A stretch of DNA of 64,000 bases. It comes from a virus. The stretch spans positions 77,042 through 141,041 of IMG/VR virus record IMGVR_UViG_3300034101_003554; one strand, written 5' to 3'. Made by a program: the position numbers and the translations under genes. Under the pieces are notes generated by a model. The model saw nothing but the letters and a program-made list of their open reading frames with translations. It ran no database searches and had not been told where the DNA came from. Positions 40,641-64,000 of the stretch are shown here, in pieces; position 1 is the stretch's first letter; the number at the start of each line of letters is the position of its first letter.

Positions 40641-42851
40641 ATGTCCTATCAAAATATAAGACAATTTGTACCAAGAAATGATTTTCCAATATTATCGTTG
40701 GAAGTATTCGATATGTCATTAACCTCGGATGAAATGGATTTCAATCAAGAGGTTGTATTTTCCCCATATTTAATTGCTCAAACATATGGGAATAAGTTAC
40801 CGATTTATTTTGATATCAATAGTACGGCATCAACACAAAATATAACTCTTACGTATAAAAACTATAATTTCAATAATATATTTGTATCTGAAAATTATTA
40901 CAACCTAAAAAACGAAATATTAAGTTGTGAATTATCTGGTAGTTCTTGTGATATTGGATTAGTTGGGATTGATAATGGTTTAGTAACTGGAATGACAGGG
41001 CAAACAATTATTTTTACTAATGGTTTATTACCAAATAATTTAAAATTTAATAGATTGTATTTTGATAGAAGATTGAAATTACATCAAGTAACTGGATTTA
41101 CATCATCTAATATAAAATTTTCAGGTTTTAATAAAACAATTTTGTATGAGGTTGTAAGTAAAGAAAGTCCTTTTGAGGGTAGATATCACGAACTATATGG
41201 TGGATTTTACCAAGGGTTCTATAAGTTATTTGGATATGATTATGAAATTTTCCCTGAAAGGATGAATAAAGGTTGGTCAGTTGAAATGGTTTTAAAACCA
41301 AGATTGATTAATGAATACAACCCAAATAGTGGGGAGACTACCTTAAATCAAATCTATCCCAATAATAAAAATATGTTCTTTTACATTGGTACTAGAGCGG
41401 AGAATAAATTTTATCATCACGCTGATGGTAGTCCAAATTGTTTTACTGGTTATACTAGAATTACATCAGGATTGACTGGGTTATCAACTTGTGCTTGTTG
41501 TGATGAAAACATTAAAAGTAGATGTATCTTTGTATATCCACCACGTTCAGTAAATGGTATACACGACCCGCATCTTAATTATGGTTGTAATAAGTGTGGA
41601 GGTAATAAAGAAACACAGATAACTTGTGGTTGTAGTTGTAATGATTTACCTTGTCAGAATTGTGGTTGGGAATGTAAAACACATACTTGTGGTACAATAA
41701 TTCCATTAACACCAACTCCAACACCTGAACCAACACCAACTCCAGTTTGTAACCCATTCCCACCTCAAACGACTTGTACACCAACTTGCACGAATTGTAA
41801 TGATTGTACAAGTTGTGATGATTGTGCGACAAGTGGGTTTACATCAATTGAAGATACTTGTGAGAAGAATCCATTATTGGATACGATGAGTAATGCTTTG
41901 GGTATCAAACTATGTGGTGACCCAAAAAATCCTGGTATTGGTATTAGATTTTTAAGATTTACTGGTGGTTGTGAAATGACTGGAACTTGTACAACAGGGA
42001 TGACTTATGAAACAGGCTATACAATAACTGAGATATGTACACCACCAATTTATCCTGATTGTGAAAAAATAAATCCAGCTTGGTTAGAAGAAGAGCATTG
42101 GTTTCAAGTTAATATTGTCTGGGAACGATATGAATTTTTCAAAGATTGTGATTTATCTTTTAAAGGTGGATTAGGTGAAATAACTGAAAGAAAATATTTG
42201 GAATCTTTGGCTAATAATACAACATCGTTGATTGCCCCACCATATACAAGAGACAAAGTTGGTTTACAAGTTGATATTATCAATTTGAATGAGATATGGT
42301 TACAAGAAGAGAAATATAGAAAGGGTAGATTAAAGATTTATATCAATGGTAAAATATTTTATACGATTGAAGATTTTGAAGAGATTATACCTAGAGGATT
42401 AAATACAGATAAAGAAAAACAAGTCGGTGTTCCGTTTAATATTTCTTGGGGTGGAGGTACTCAAGGGTTAAGAGAAAATTTAACCTTTACTGATATGTTA
42501 GGTACAGGTTATACTCAAGACCCAGAATGTTTTCCAACTAATGATTTGAGTGGTACTACTTTAAGTGGATTAAATACAAACATATTAATTGAACAAAATT
42601 TTGCTGGAACATTTGAGGGTGGTATATCTCAATTTAGAATGTATGTTGAACCACTAACAGCACCAGAGGTTAAACATAATTTTATTTTATTAAAAAATAC
42701 ATTTAGGATGTTTAATCCTGATTGTCCTGATTGTACAACAATTCCTTGTGAAGTTAATGATTTCACATACCAAATTATTAATAATAATATATTAACAGAA
42801 AATGGTAATAATATAATAACAGAAGATGGAAACAATATAATTATAGAATAA
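40641..42851 (+). CDS. Cys-rich virion-type protein with a Pro-Thr tract and a LamG/ConA-like C-terminal region
   Basis: CxC/CxxC clusters, TPTPTPEPTPTP, GRLKIYINGK..WGGG..FEGGISQFRMY..EVKHNF. Confidence 0.65.
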   Translation: MSYQNIRQFVPRNDFPILSLEVFDMSLTSDEMDFNQEVVFSPYLIAQTYGNKLPIYFDINSTASTQNITLTYKNYNFNNIFVSENYYNLKNEILSCELSGSSCDIGLVGIDNGLVTGMTGQTIIFTNGLLPNNLKFNRLYFDRRLKLHQVTGFTSSNIKFSGFNKTILYEVVSKESPFEGRYHELYGGFYQGFYKLFGYDYEIFPERMNKGWSVEMVLKPRLINEYNPNSGETTLNQIYPNNKNMFFYIGTRAENKFYHHADGSPNCFTGYTRITSGLTGLSTCACCDENIKSRCIFVYPPRSVNGIHDPHLNYGCNKCGGNKETQITCGCSCNDLPCQNCGWECKTHTCGTIIPLTPTPTPEPTPTPVCNPFPPQTTCTPTCTNCNDCTSCDDCATSGFTSIEDTCEKNPLLDTMSNALGIKLCGDPKNPGIGIRFLRFTGGCEMTGTCTTGMTYETGYTITEICTPPIYPDCEKINPAWLEEEHWFQVNIVWERYEFFKDCDLSFKGGLGEITERKYLESLANNTTSLIAPPYTRDKVGLQVDIINLNEIWLQEEKYRKGRLKIYINGKIFYTIEDFEEIIPRGLNTDKEKQVGVPFNISWGGGTQGLRENLTFTDMLGTGYTQDPECFPTNDLSGTTLSGLNTNILIEQNFAGTFEGGISQFRMYVEPLTAPEVKHNFILLKNTFRMFNPDCPDCTTIPCEVNDFTYQIINNNILTENGNNIITEDGNNIIIE

Positions 42852-42863
42852 AACAAATACAAA

Positions 42864-60849: not shown

Positions 60850-63800
60850 ATGGAATTTTTTATAAAGAAGAACGCAACGTTACCTCTTCTTAAATTACAA
60901 GTGGTTAAGAATGGTAGATTGGACTACAATAACTTTATGAGTTTGATAGAACAATCTGCATTATTTTTTTCTATGGTTGATGTTGAATCAGGTGTAGCTA
61001 AAATTGTTTCAAGACCTGCAGGATTTGTTGAGAAGACTAATGTTGACCCAAATGCTGAAAAGGAATATTATCTATATTATCAATTCCAAAATAAAGATAC
61101 AAATAGAGTTGGGAGATACGAAGGTCAATTTATGTTAAGAAATTCTGATGGTGTTTTAATATTACCAATTAGAGAAAAATTATATATAAATGTTCAAGAA
61201 TCTTATATTGCCGATGATTTGGAATATGATTCTTGTTACATATCTGAATTTCCTTGTTGTGTTAACGGACCCACAACAGCTATCACAATAAATTTAAATA
61301 TAGTAAGTGTTGTAACCGTAAGTTCAGTAAAGGTTGATTATATTGTAACATCTTCTGATATATTAACAGACACACTAACATTAAATTTCACAAATACTTT
61401 AGGACAATTAGTCGGAACAGGATTAACAATTTCAACTGGTATTACAATAAATGCTGGTTCAAACATTGGATTTAGTGAGGTTATATTACCTGATGATTAT
61501 TATAATTTGGATGGGACTTCAACATTTAGTAATATTTCGGTTGTTTATCCAATTGCTTACAATTTTGTGGAATCATTTAATACAATATTTCCTCCACAGC
61601 CAACACCAACACCATCACCAGTACAACAAATAATTGATGCTATTTTAACTGATGAAACTGATGTGTATATTGAGGTTGGTAGTGATGAGTATTTGAGTTA
61701 TGTTGACCCAACTCTTGAATATCTTGTAAACGTTTATATTGCAAGTGGTTCGGTTATTACAACATTTACAATAACTTCTAATATACCTATAAATGAAGTT
61801 GTTTCAATACCATTATCTCTTAATTTGGGATTAATTGGTGGTGGAAGTGTAAACATTTCGTCAACGGTTATTATTCCTATAAATCAAACATCAGGTCAAA
61901 CTATTACTAACAATTCTTCTTTGAATTTTTATAGTTTGAATCAAACTGGTGAATTGTTCATTGATTCTCCAAGTATTAATTTTCCAATTAATTTCTCGGC
62001 AAATCAAATACAATTTGAACAACCACCAACTCCGACACCTACACCTACAATAACTCCAACGATTACACCTACATCGTCTGAGACACCAACACCAACACCT
62101 ACAGAAACTCCGACACCAACACCAACGATTACGCCTACATCGTCAGAGACACCAACTCCGACACCAACACCTACAGAAACTCCGACACCAACACCTACTA
62201 CTATTATTTATACACCTTTCGTTAGTGTTTGGAGTGCTAATACTGTAATTGAATTACCCTATTCGCCAAGTGGTTTATATTCAGGAACAATAGATTGGGG
62301 TGATGGAAATATTTCCGCAAACACATATGGAAATCAAACTCACACATATGATGTACCAGGTGAGTACACCATAACAATAATAGGACAAATTGAAGGTTGG
62401 AACTTCCAAATCTACGCGACAAGTTATAGACCTAATATTAAAGAAATAATAAGTTGGGGGTCATTAAGAGGTTCAAGTAATTCAAATTTAAATATGTTCA
62501 TAGGTTGTTCAAATCTCGTATTAACAGGTGCTACAGATACCCCTAATTTAGTTGGGATTAATTTCTTAAGTGGCATGTTCCAAGCGTGCTCATCATTGAC
62601 AATGGTAAATAATATGAATGATTGGAATGTTTCTGGAGTTACGAACATAAGTTATATGTTTTATCTCGCAACCAATTTTAACCAAGACATTGGAAATTGG
62701 AATGTTATTAGTGTTACTAATATGTTTGCTATGTTCGCAGATGCTACCAATTTTAACCAAGACATTGGAAGTTGGAACGTTAGTGGTGTTACTAATATGG
62801 GTAATATGTTTCAAAACGCAACCACATTCAATCAAGATTTAAGTGGTTGGTGTGTAACAAATATACCAAGTTTACCAACTAATTTTGACTCAGGTGCTAC
62901 ATCTTGGGTATTACCAAAACCAGTTTGGGGAACTTGTCCCCCACTAGTTTCTCCTACTCCGACACCAACACCAACACCTACAGAAACTCCGACACCAACT
63001 CCAACGATAACTCCAACATCGTCAGAGACACCTACTCCTACACCTACAGAAACTCCGACACCAACACCTACGCTGACTCCTACTCCAACTCCAATACCTA
63101 ATCCATTCATATCTGTATGGAGAACAACATCTCCATCTGAAACAATAACATTACCATTGGAAAGTAGTGGAACTTATAGTTTCGTTGTTGATTGGGGTGA
63201 TGGAAATACTGATACAATTACTTCTTGGAATCAAACAGAAAGAACTCATACATATTCAGTCGCAGGTGATTATGTTGTTACAATTGATGGAACATTAATT
63301 GGTTATCGTTTTTATGATTATAGTACTGAAGCACCAAAATTAATTGAGATTCAAAGGTGGGGTTGTTTGAGACTTACTAATAATAATTTTTATTTTTATA
63401 ATTGTTCAAATTTAGTTTTATCTGGTGTTACAGATACAATTAATTTGTTAGGAATAACTTCATTGTATGGTATGTTTCAAGGTTGTTCAAATATCACAAC
63501 AATTAATAATATTAATTCTTGGGATATAAGTAATATTACTAATATGGGTGCTATGTTTTTTGGAACACCATTTAACCAAGACATTGGAAGTTGGAACGTT
63601 AGTGGTGTTACAAATATGGGTAGTATGTTCAATAACTCACCATTTAATCAAGACATAAGTAGTTGGGATGTTAGTAATGTTACTAATATGAGTGGTATGT
63701 TTTTTGGAACACCATTTAACCAAGACATTGGAAGTTGGAACGTTAGTGGTGTAACTAATATGATTAATATGTTTTATAACGCAACATCATTTAATCAAGA

Positions 63801-64000
63801 TATTGGAAGTTGGAATGTTAGTGGTGTAACTAATATGAGTTATATGTTTACTGATTCAACATTTAATCAAGATATTTCAAGTTGGAATGTTAGTAGTGTA
63901 ACTAATATGAGTGGTATGTTTTTTGGAACACCATTTAACCAAGACATTGGAAGTTGGAACGTTAGTGGTGTTACAAATATGGGTAGTATGTTCAATAACT
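60850..64000 (+). CDS. Large modular fibre/adhesin, 3'-truncated: BppU-like N-terminus, Pro-Thr linkers, PKD-like domains, BspA/DUF285-type repeats
   Basis: Absent from the ORF track because it has no stop in the window. Reads [17 protein letters not shown]...; two IDWGDG..HTY modules; repeated [20 protein letters not shown]. Confidence 0.85.
63552..64000 (+). repeat. Near-identical DNA repeats in the DUF285 array
   Basis: 86-nt exact match 63552-63637 vs 63915-64000; 71-nt match 63682-63752 vs 63901-63971. Confidence 0.85.

Follow-up and report, generated by a model that had tools for sequence, protein, structure and literature searches.

Why would a large phage encode a glycosyltransferase of family GT60 directly beside genes whose products carry long threonine-proline repeats? 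This question is raised by a window of 64,000 nucleotides (nt), which is the last 64 kb of the 141-kb viral contig IMGVR_UViG_3300034101_003554 (completeness ~48% by CheckV). In this window, the GT60 gene (55038-56288) is the first of three co-oriented transferase genes, and the trio is flanked by open reading frames (ORFs) with Thr-Pro (PT) tracts. Our answer, to which we give a probability of roughly 60%, is that the locus encodes a cytoplasmic threonine O-glycosylation of the Thr-Pro linkers in fibre-like proteins, in which the GT60 enzyme primes, a two-domain transferase (56968-58641) extends and enzymes of a variable gene cassette tailor the sugar chain. A preliminary description of the window had already proposed a mucin-type system at this place, and several of its claims are revisited below.

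The product of 55038-56288 (+ strand) is a soluble protein of 416 residues, and its family membership is firm. It scores 249.5 bits with PF11397 (GlcNAc), for which the cut-off is 21 (E 8.7e-74), and matches phrog_24687 over its full length (E 3.5e-170), and its relatives also match PF11397 in whole-record searches. The motifs from which the preliminary description had called the enzyme GT60-like are IASFRD (residues 8-13), DSH (92-94) and GEE (203-205), and the profile assignment and structure prediction both agree with that call. An alignment of 20 diverse homologues, with identities as low as 32%, shows no variation at D92-S93-H94, G203-E204-E205 or R233. The replacement of DxD by DxH is a stated mark of GT27 and GT60, two families which are said to share O-glycosylation of Ser/Thr in polypeptides, with GT60 known in prokaryotes and protists (PMC7185993). 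In the AlphaFold (AF2) model of the enzyme (predicted local distance difference test, pLDDT, 91.8; predicted template modelling score, pTM, 0.84), a catalytic GT-A domain (~residues 1-330) is followed by a conserved beta-rich C-terminal domain (~327-416). The first ~30 Foldseek matches of this model are all polypeptide GalNAc-transferases, and the best 29 VIA-align entries are all of the same kind (Z 19.4-22.7, root-mean-square deviation (rmsd) ~3.5 Å over ~278 residues), generic GT-A enzymes being the next fold class (Z <=17.9). A sequence search of the PDB gave no match, no GT27-type Pfam match was obtained for 55038-56288, and no ricin-type lectin domain was detected, the fold list covering residues 1-330 and barely probing the C-terminal part. 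By profile and by predicted fold, the protein belongs firmly to GT60, with mucin-type initiating enzymes as its nearest solved folds, and we propose it as a putative initiating polypeptide O-glycosyltransferase. The protein begins at its first beta-strand without a membrane anchor and should therefore work in the cytoplasm, where virions are built.

Compared with the protist GT60 alpha-GlcNAc-transferases (the mucin-type initiators of Trypanosoma cruzi and Dictyostelium, and Gnt1 of Dictyostelium and Toxoplasma, which acts on Skp1 hydroxyproline), the phage enzyme shares PF11397, the DxH motif and a GT-A fold next to that of GT27, and the candidate phage acceptors are rich in Thr and Pro as protist mucins are. 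The protist mucin-type GT60 enzymes are Golgi type II membrane proteins. In contrast, the phage enzyme is soluble, has the extra conserved C-terminal domain of ~90 residues and a two-domain partner, and its genes are those of phages and bacteria. The animal and Toxoplasma GT27 GalNAc-transferases have the same DxH and are the best structural match, at ~12% identity over the residues aligned, but the phage enzyme is not GT27 by sequence and is predicted to be cytoplasmic, whereas the GT27 enzymes are in the Golgi.

The candidate acceptors are encoded on both sides of this enzyme. PT tracts are present at 41703-41747, 44794-44886, 45007-45057, 52931-53026, 54689-54730, 61591-61623, 62023-62202 and 62950-63108, which agrees within a few bases with the tracts given in the preliminary description. 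The five + strand ORFs concerned flank the trio and hold every PT tract of the 141-kb contig. Together the tracts sum to 237 residues (44% Thr, 35% Pro and 3% Ser), and 18 copies of a (PT)3-coding 17-mer were counted, all of them on the + strand, as against 0 in 100 shuffles. The first gene of the + strand array, 40641-42851 (736 residues), has one tract (41703-41747) and is without a family match. ORF 44581-45387 (268 residues; 21% Thr and 13% Pro) has three, namely 44794-44886, a stretch of 15 residues, and 45007-45057. In ORF 50765-53776 (1003 residues), a 32-residue linker (52931-53026) leads straight into a distal domain (residues 755-846) with 53% identity to a protein of Flavobacterium phage FL-1, in which the gene of the homologue comes after the portal gene. 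ORF 54164-54979 (271 residues), directly upstream of GT60, consists of small Cys-rich modules with Thr-Pro linkers between them (54689-54730) and ends in a TPTPSVTPTITPSPSSP tail. The last one, 60850-63999, is cut by the contig end (at least 1050 residues) and has Thr-Pro tracts of 60 and 53 residues together with PKD and DUF285 repeats. Its N-terminal ~140 residues are kept in 59 of the 76 IMG/VR loci encoding GT60 relatives that form our phage set (50 loci after dereplication), while its distal PT, PKD and DUF285 modules vary; as far as sequence comparison can tell, this is the usual fibre anatomy of a fixed anchor with swappable tips.

The label of fibre or appendage genes, which these five ORFs had been given before, has indirect support. 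It agrees with the gene order and with likenesses to phage FL-1 and to cyanophages. The latter was found in a sixth + strand ORF, 45401-47425 (674 residues, Thr/Ser-rich, without a PT tract), whose C-terminal ~110 residues resemble a cyanophage 'virion structural protein', and this likeness is the best sign that the + strand array is structural. On the other side, four of the five PT proteins were not assigned to any fibre family by PHROGs or Pfam. No match in cultured phages was obtained by tblastn for 40641-42851 or for the conserved N-terminus of 60850-63999, and the scores of the 271-residue Thr-Pro protein in Protein Atlas (<=0.82) are leads only.

The transferase trio is closely tied to this array. 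A 58-nt AT-rich gap, in which no hairpin was found, separates 54164-54979 from GT60, so that the previously noted gap and gene order are confirmed. The trio genes overlap as TAATG (55038-56288/56288-56971) and ATGA (56288-56971/56968-58641), and a strong two-way terminator-like hairpin at 58640-58667 (12-bp stem with A6 and T6 flanks) ends the + strand array downstream of the two-domain transferase. This last enzyme (56968-58641, + strand, 557 residues), the conserved partner of GT60, had been described as an HtrL/YibB-like domain fused to a GT-A domain, correctly as it turned out. Residues 2-252 match PF09612 HtrL_YibB (61.9 bits, cut-off 24.1, E 9.4e-17), and the model (pLDDT 84.9) has two GT-A domains. 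The HtrL_YibB half is predicted to fold GT6-like (BoGT6a Z 13.4; PBCV-1 A64R Z 11.4), the C-terminal half is nearest to B4GALNT1, POMGnT1 and GnT-I (Z 14.5-15.4), and a sequence search of the PDB gave no match. Both domains jointly align with LARGE1, Pasteurella heparosan synthase 2 and chondroitin synthases, which likewise have two GT-A domains per chain. This likeness is in fold only (Z ~11-12.5, with a large rmsd over both domains), and polymerisation of a repeat would be an argument by analogy. The middle gene (56288-56971, + strand, 227 residues) is GT25-like as described before, though weakly so, with a partial match to PF01755 Glyco_transf_25 (30.5 bits, cut-off 24, profile positions 69-198 only). 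It is an accessory cassette absent from most relatives. Contigs of two lake metagenomes join 56288 straight to 56971, an exact loss of the GT25-like gene, and it is thus dispensable, behaving as a clean insertion/deletion cassette.

The same arrangement recurs in related phages. In ~68 of the 76 IMG/VR loci, the two-domain enzyme lies 0.6-7 kb downstream of GT60, and the stretch between them is a variable cassette. It holds the GT25-like gene alone in the window, genes for an FkbM methyltransferase, a DegT aminotransferase and GT10-like and GT25 enzymes in locus L048, and a carbamoyltransferase in the L059-L068 group and in Xanthomonas phage XacN1. For example, a carbamoyltransferase (Carbam_trans_N/C) follows GT60 at L061:11262-12839, in a marine-type subgroup without PT tracts, and at L001:13415-15712 (XacN1), which suggests O-carbamoylated sugars, as in Nod factors. 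The earlier proposal that the neighbouring transferases are extenders fits the two-domain enzyme, which is conserved with GT60; it is not supported for the GT25-like gene, which is missing in close relatives. Some loci have a longer two-domain enzyme of ~790 residues with an extra N-terminal domain (L005:12096-14477, L033:4210-6594, L057:14708-17080, L075:15620-17977 and L076:13721-16096), probably an FkbM-type methyltransferase as judged from its first residues. A second, divergent GT60 paralogue (32-42% identity) is present in tandem at L056:11215-12177 and L057:11244-12524. A GT60 of 35% identity, encoded on a contig of 19% GC that is possibly from a eukaryotic virus (L078:9782-10921), has an N-terminal hydrophobic anchor like that of the protist Golgi enzymes and no two-domain partner.

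The association of GT60 with Thr-Pro tracts was counted in several ways in phages, the counts not being phylogenetically independent. A PT tract is present in the flanks of 39 of the 50 dereplicated loci, and in ~22 of them the gene ending <=310 nt upstream of GT60 carries one. Long PT tracts are 2.7x denser <=2.5 kb from GT60 than beyond (p 5e-4). Among 18 contigs related by their capsid gene, (PT)4 words were found in 8/8 with GT60 vs 2/10 without it (p 0.001), a contrast that shows linkage on fragments and not dependence; all three near-complete capsid-related genomes have both GT60 and (PT)4 words. GT60 is also present in 9 of 69 IMG/VR records with a (PT)5 word, as compared with 0 of 72 with a (GS)4 word (p 0.0012), and among records of >=60 kb the corresponding numbers are 7/15 and 0/8 (p 0.052). 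Because the phage counts depend on shared phylogeny, independent lineages were sought.

Using the GT60 profile, 416 bacterial genome loci from many phyla were found, often with the two-domain enzyme adjacent. We counted (PT)4-coding words in 50 of these genomes (264.6 Mb), in which the GT60 loci (+-8 kb) make up 0.31% of the DNA; a genome-wide word count was used since greedy longest-ORF calling lost most high-GC Thr-Pro genes. Inside the GT60 loci there are 200 of the 324 words, vs 1.0 expected. A word occurs in the GT60 locus in 12 of the 50 genomes, vs <=0.97 expected (Poisson p 6e-10), and seven genomes have no (PT)4 word outside it. These counts thus support a pairing of GT60 with Thr-Pro tracts that exceeds chance by far, both among phages distant from one another and in unrelated bacteria. 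Since the same module is common in bacterial chromosomes, the system is neither phage-specific nor 'eukaryote-style' in origin, and the latter epithet, used in the preliminary description for the expected mucin, has to be dropped.

The bacterial neighbours of GT60 are of three kinds: small near-pure Thr-Pro repeat proteins, large multi-module proteins, and VgrG spikes of the type VI secretion system. Several of the small proteins stand behind a signal of RR plus a hydrophobic stretch, which is twin-arginine-like (L300:7314-7952, L295:7215-7937, L333:9608-10240, L352:9488-10123, L320:11414-12121 on the - strand, and L340:6445-7992), and those of Gemmatimonadaceae begin with a PqqD (peptide-recognition) domain. 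Export of such proteins in an already folded or glycosylated state is a possibility. VgrG proteins (Phage_GPD, Gp5_trimer_C, Phage_base_V) whose end is a tail of nothing but (PT)n, tens of repeats long, are encoded on the - strand at L342:10273-13134, L351:13055-15538 and L346:13079-15439 (Ralstonia sp. 25C, Achromobacter and Trinickia), and a GT60 homologue of the short form lies at a distance of 1-4 kb. VgrG is assembled in the cytoplasm, as a phage fibre is.

The closest link to a measured virion comes from cultured jumbo phages of Xanthomonas and Stenotrophomonas, which encode GT60 at 45-50% identity. In Xanthomonas phage XacN1, GT60 is ORF334 (48% identity) and the two-domain enzyme is ORF330 (41%, full length), while ORF325, a protein of 3313 residues with PT tracts, is encoded ~9 kb from the GT60 locus, after the baseplate wedge genes. 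XacN1 virions gave at least two Schiff-stained glycoprotein bands, and phage transferases were suggested as their makers; the bands were left without protein names, ORF334 without a GT60 label, and the Thr-Pro tracts unmentioned (PMC5852040). XacN1 is thus like the phage of the window in having the same GT60, the two-domain enzyme and PT-tract proteins, with virions that stain for glycoprotein, and it differs in the carbamoyltransferase of its cassette and in its gammaproteobacterial host.

We infer the acceptor and donor, the sequence of steps and the virion location of the targets as follows. During infection, the soluble GT60 enzyme would move the first sugar from a UDP-sugar onto threonines of the Thr-Pro tracts in the host cytoplasm, and by family precedent this sugar would be an alpha-linked N-acetylhexosamine. 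Fibre-like proteins whose genes flank that of GT60 would be the acceptors. The two-domain transferase would add the next sugars, and the genes of the variable cassette would tailor the chain, using the GT25-like enzyme here and methyl-, amino-, carbamoyl- and fucosyl-type enzymes in relatives. The outcome would be stiff, protease-resistant, sugar-coated linkers on virion parts.

Such a system combines two known kinds, phage virion glycosylation and mucin-type priming by GT60/GT27. We found no published account of GT60/PF11397 in phages or of a phage tail-fibre O-glycosylation matching this system. For mycobacteriophages, the work of Freeman et al. 2023, as cited in PMC12619734 and PMC10877033, is described there as having measured glycans at the C-termini of capsid and tail-tube subunits, and in those accounts transferases of the phage, working in the host cytoplasm, are held to glycosylate its structural proteins, as we propose here. 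In contrast, the acceptors proposed here lie inside fibre-like proteins, as internal Thr-Pro linkers, the candidate initiator is GT60, and the system is predicted from genes. The capsid glycosylation of chlorovirus PBCV-1 (A64R and its partners) is similar in that virus-encoded cytoplasmic multi-domain transferases are used together with methyltransferases, and A64R is the protein to which the HtrL-like domain was aligned above. PBCV-1 differs in being a eukaryotic virus whose capsid protein carries N-linked glycans, a modification that involves neither GT60 nor repeat tracts.

Other features of the window describe the phage itself. From its T4-type portal (Portal_T4, E 3.6e-76), major capsid protein (Gp23, E 2e-73) and large terminase (Terminase_6N, E 1.9e-12), the phage is T4-like (Straboviridae-like); its near-complete relatives measure 270-320 kb, and the GC content of the window is ~29%. 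The Gp23-type capsid protein (615 residues, 9201-11048) seems to hold a large insertion, because its Pfam match is split in two parts with the best stretch starting at residue 349. Convergent on the trio, a protein of 404 residues (58667-59881, - strand) carries Por_Secre_tail, the C-terminal sorting domain of the type IX secretion system (T9SS; E 3.5e-9). Its homologues are present in a few related loci, and a phage protein sent through the type IX system of its host would be unusual. Together with the fibre-module match to Flavobacterium phage FL-1, this protein points to a Bacteroidota host; no support was found for the earlier idea that the virion glycan is bait for glycan-foraging Bacteroidota. 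A sugar-building gene block is present at 22334-37880 on the - strand, with five GT2 genes, GT10, GT11, GT25, GT47-like and phrog_7162 transferase genes, two FkbM and one TylF methyltransferase and an NAD epimerase/dehydratase, interspersed with PhoH, dUTPase and exonuclease genes. Judged by these families it is a real sugar-building operon and a possible source of further sugars, but nothing connects it to the GT60 glycan, which it had been supposed to extend.

Near-identical DNA is present in lake-water metagenomes from many studies; no RNA dataset was found among the public runs listed as holding window-like DNA. The summed depth of lake-metagenome contigs is 86-2000 over Thr-Pro-coding bins (52936-53169 and 54574-54807) vs ~5 elsewhere, so Thr-Pro-coding DNA of this kind must be extremely common in those lakes, and the GT60 bins are likewise raised (40-186). 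In the window, sigma-70-like promoter sites (135 vs 129 expected) and the T4 late promoter motif TATAAATA (24 vs 21 expected) occur at chance level.

Several observations weigh against glycosylation of the Thr-Pro linkers by GT60. Of the viral records with PT tracts, 60 of 69 are without GT60, including 5 of the 6 near-complete ones, and the tracts therefore do not need the enzyme. The co-occurrence of GT60 and PT tracts expected among related phages is thus seen in the capsid-related contigs and breaks down in these records. Conversely, in the L059-L068 subgroup (55-57% identity), GT60 and its two-domain partner are surrounded by non-fibre genes, and the contigs of 35-89 kb are free of PT tracts. 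In XacN1, in Xoo-sp13 and in near-complete relatives, including one of 321 kb, several of the tracts are distant from GT60. Inside the bacterial loci, the near/far density of PT tracts (2.5 kb) is not significant (p 0.099), and the genome-wide control alone is. In addition, the virion status of the PT proteins is deduced from weak similarity and gene order, the glycoprotein bands of XacN1 are not tied to any particular protein, and the function proposed for GT60 in phages and prokaryotes is drawn from family, predicted fold and linkage.

Other explanations were weighed as well. GT60 may glycosylate another protein of the phage or host, its proximity to the Thr-Pro tracts coming from a shared, fast-changing fibre region. 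The region is indeed plastic, since cassette genes come and go and distal fibre modules are swapped, and the GT60 subgroup without nearby PT tracts fits this idea as well. A precedent is the Dictyostelium-type GT60 member Gnt1, which acts on one residue of one protein, Skp1. However, GT60 and the tracts are also paired in the chromosomes of bacteria from many phyla, which have no fibre region; in seven of these genomes the (PT)4 words are confined to the GT60 locus, and the pairing is seen again beside the (PT)n tails of VgrG. We regard a different target as unlikely, and still less likely is a role of the trio in rebuilding a host surface glycan (lipopolysaccharide (LPS) or capsule) during infection, for example in blocking superinfection, with the Thr-Pro tracts as ordinary linkers. 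That role would suit GT25 and HtrL_YibB, families named from LPS(-core) gene clusters, a point that also counts against a protein target, as well as the large separate sugar operon and the T9SS-sorted protein beside the trio, and glycosyltransferase clusters of jumbo phages have been interpreted as surface-polysaccharide modifiers (PMC7824862). Against it, every characterised GT60 cited acts on polypeptides (PMC7185993), and the nearest folds of the phage enzyme are polypeptide transferases, well apart from polysaccharide synthases. Among the three genes there was no sign of a flippase, a polymerase, or a transferase that is membrane-anchored or of the lipid-carrier kind, and the clustering of bacterial PT tracts beside GT60 would be left unexplained.

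Within the tracts, proline rather than threonine could be the modified residue, after hydroxylation, by a Skp1- or extensin-like route. One GT60 branch does modify hydroxyproline, and the tracts are 35% proline. Nevertheless, threonine is favoured because no PF13640 prolyl hydroxylase was found in the contig, in three near-complete relatives or in a fourth relative; threonine is also the commonest residue (44%) and is kept across all tracts, which makes the hydroxyproline route very improbable. The transferases might finally hypermodify the phage DNA by placing sugars on hydroxymethylated bases, as in T4-like phages, to which this phage belongs. Its near-complete relatives encode a thymidylate-synthase-family protein, and DNA-glycosylating phage GT-A enzymes exist, but the known DNA transferases are JGT-like with R...DDD...EDY/F motifs and GT60 is never mentioned among them (bioRxiv 10.1101/2023.12.21.572611). 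Moreover, the ThyA-family gene is >100 kb from GT60 in the relatives, XacN1 DNA was cut by restriction enzymes (restriction patterns were obtained), and DNA modification has no tie to PT tracts. No Tet_JBP match was found either, which says little, as the search gave none anywhere, control genomes included. Of all the alternatives we give DNA modification the least credence, and hardly any.

In conclusion, we prefer cytoplasmic O-glycosylation of the Thr-Pro linkers, with GT60 as the initiator and the two-domain enzyme as the conserved extender. A much bolder version, which we consider speculative and on balance improbable, is that the two enzymes make up an undescribed and widespread prokaryotic system for cytoplasmic O-glycosylation of Thr-Pro repeats. 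GT60 would prime threonine and the partner would build a repeating disaccharide chain like LARGE1 or heparosan synthase, giving proteoglycan-like stalks to structures that are assembled or folded before exit, such as phage fibres, the (PT)n spikes of VgrG and the Thr-Pro proteins with twin-arginine-type export. If our reading is true, mucin-type priming of Thr-rich repeats would not be a eukaryotic speciality but a common cytoplasmic system of bacteria and large phages, and a function could be named for a family with over 7,300 relatives in lake metagenomes. Glyco-engineers would gain a soluble enzyme for placing sugars on simple (PT)n tags in bacteria. For the phages themselves, the ubiquitous Thr-Pro linkers of fibre proteins would be explained as glycan carriers, with a bearing on phage stability, host recognition and immune recognition.

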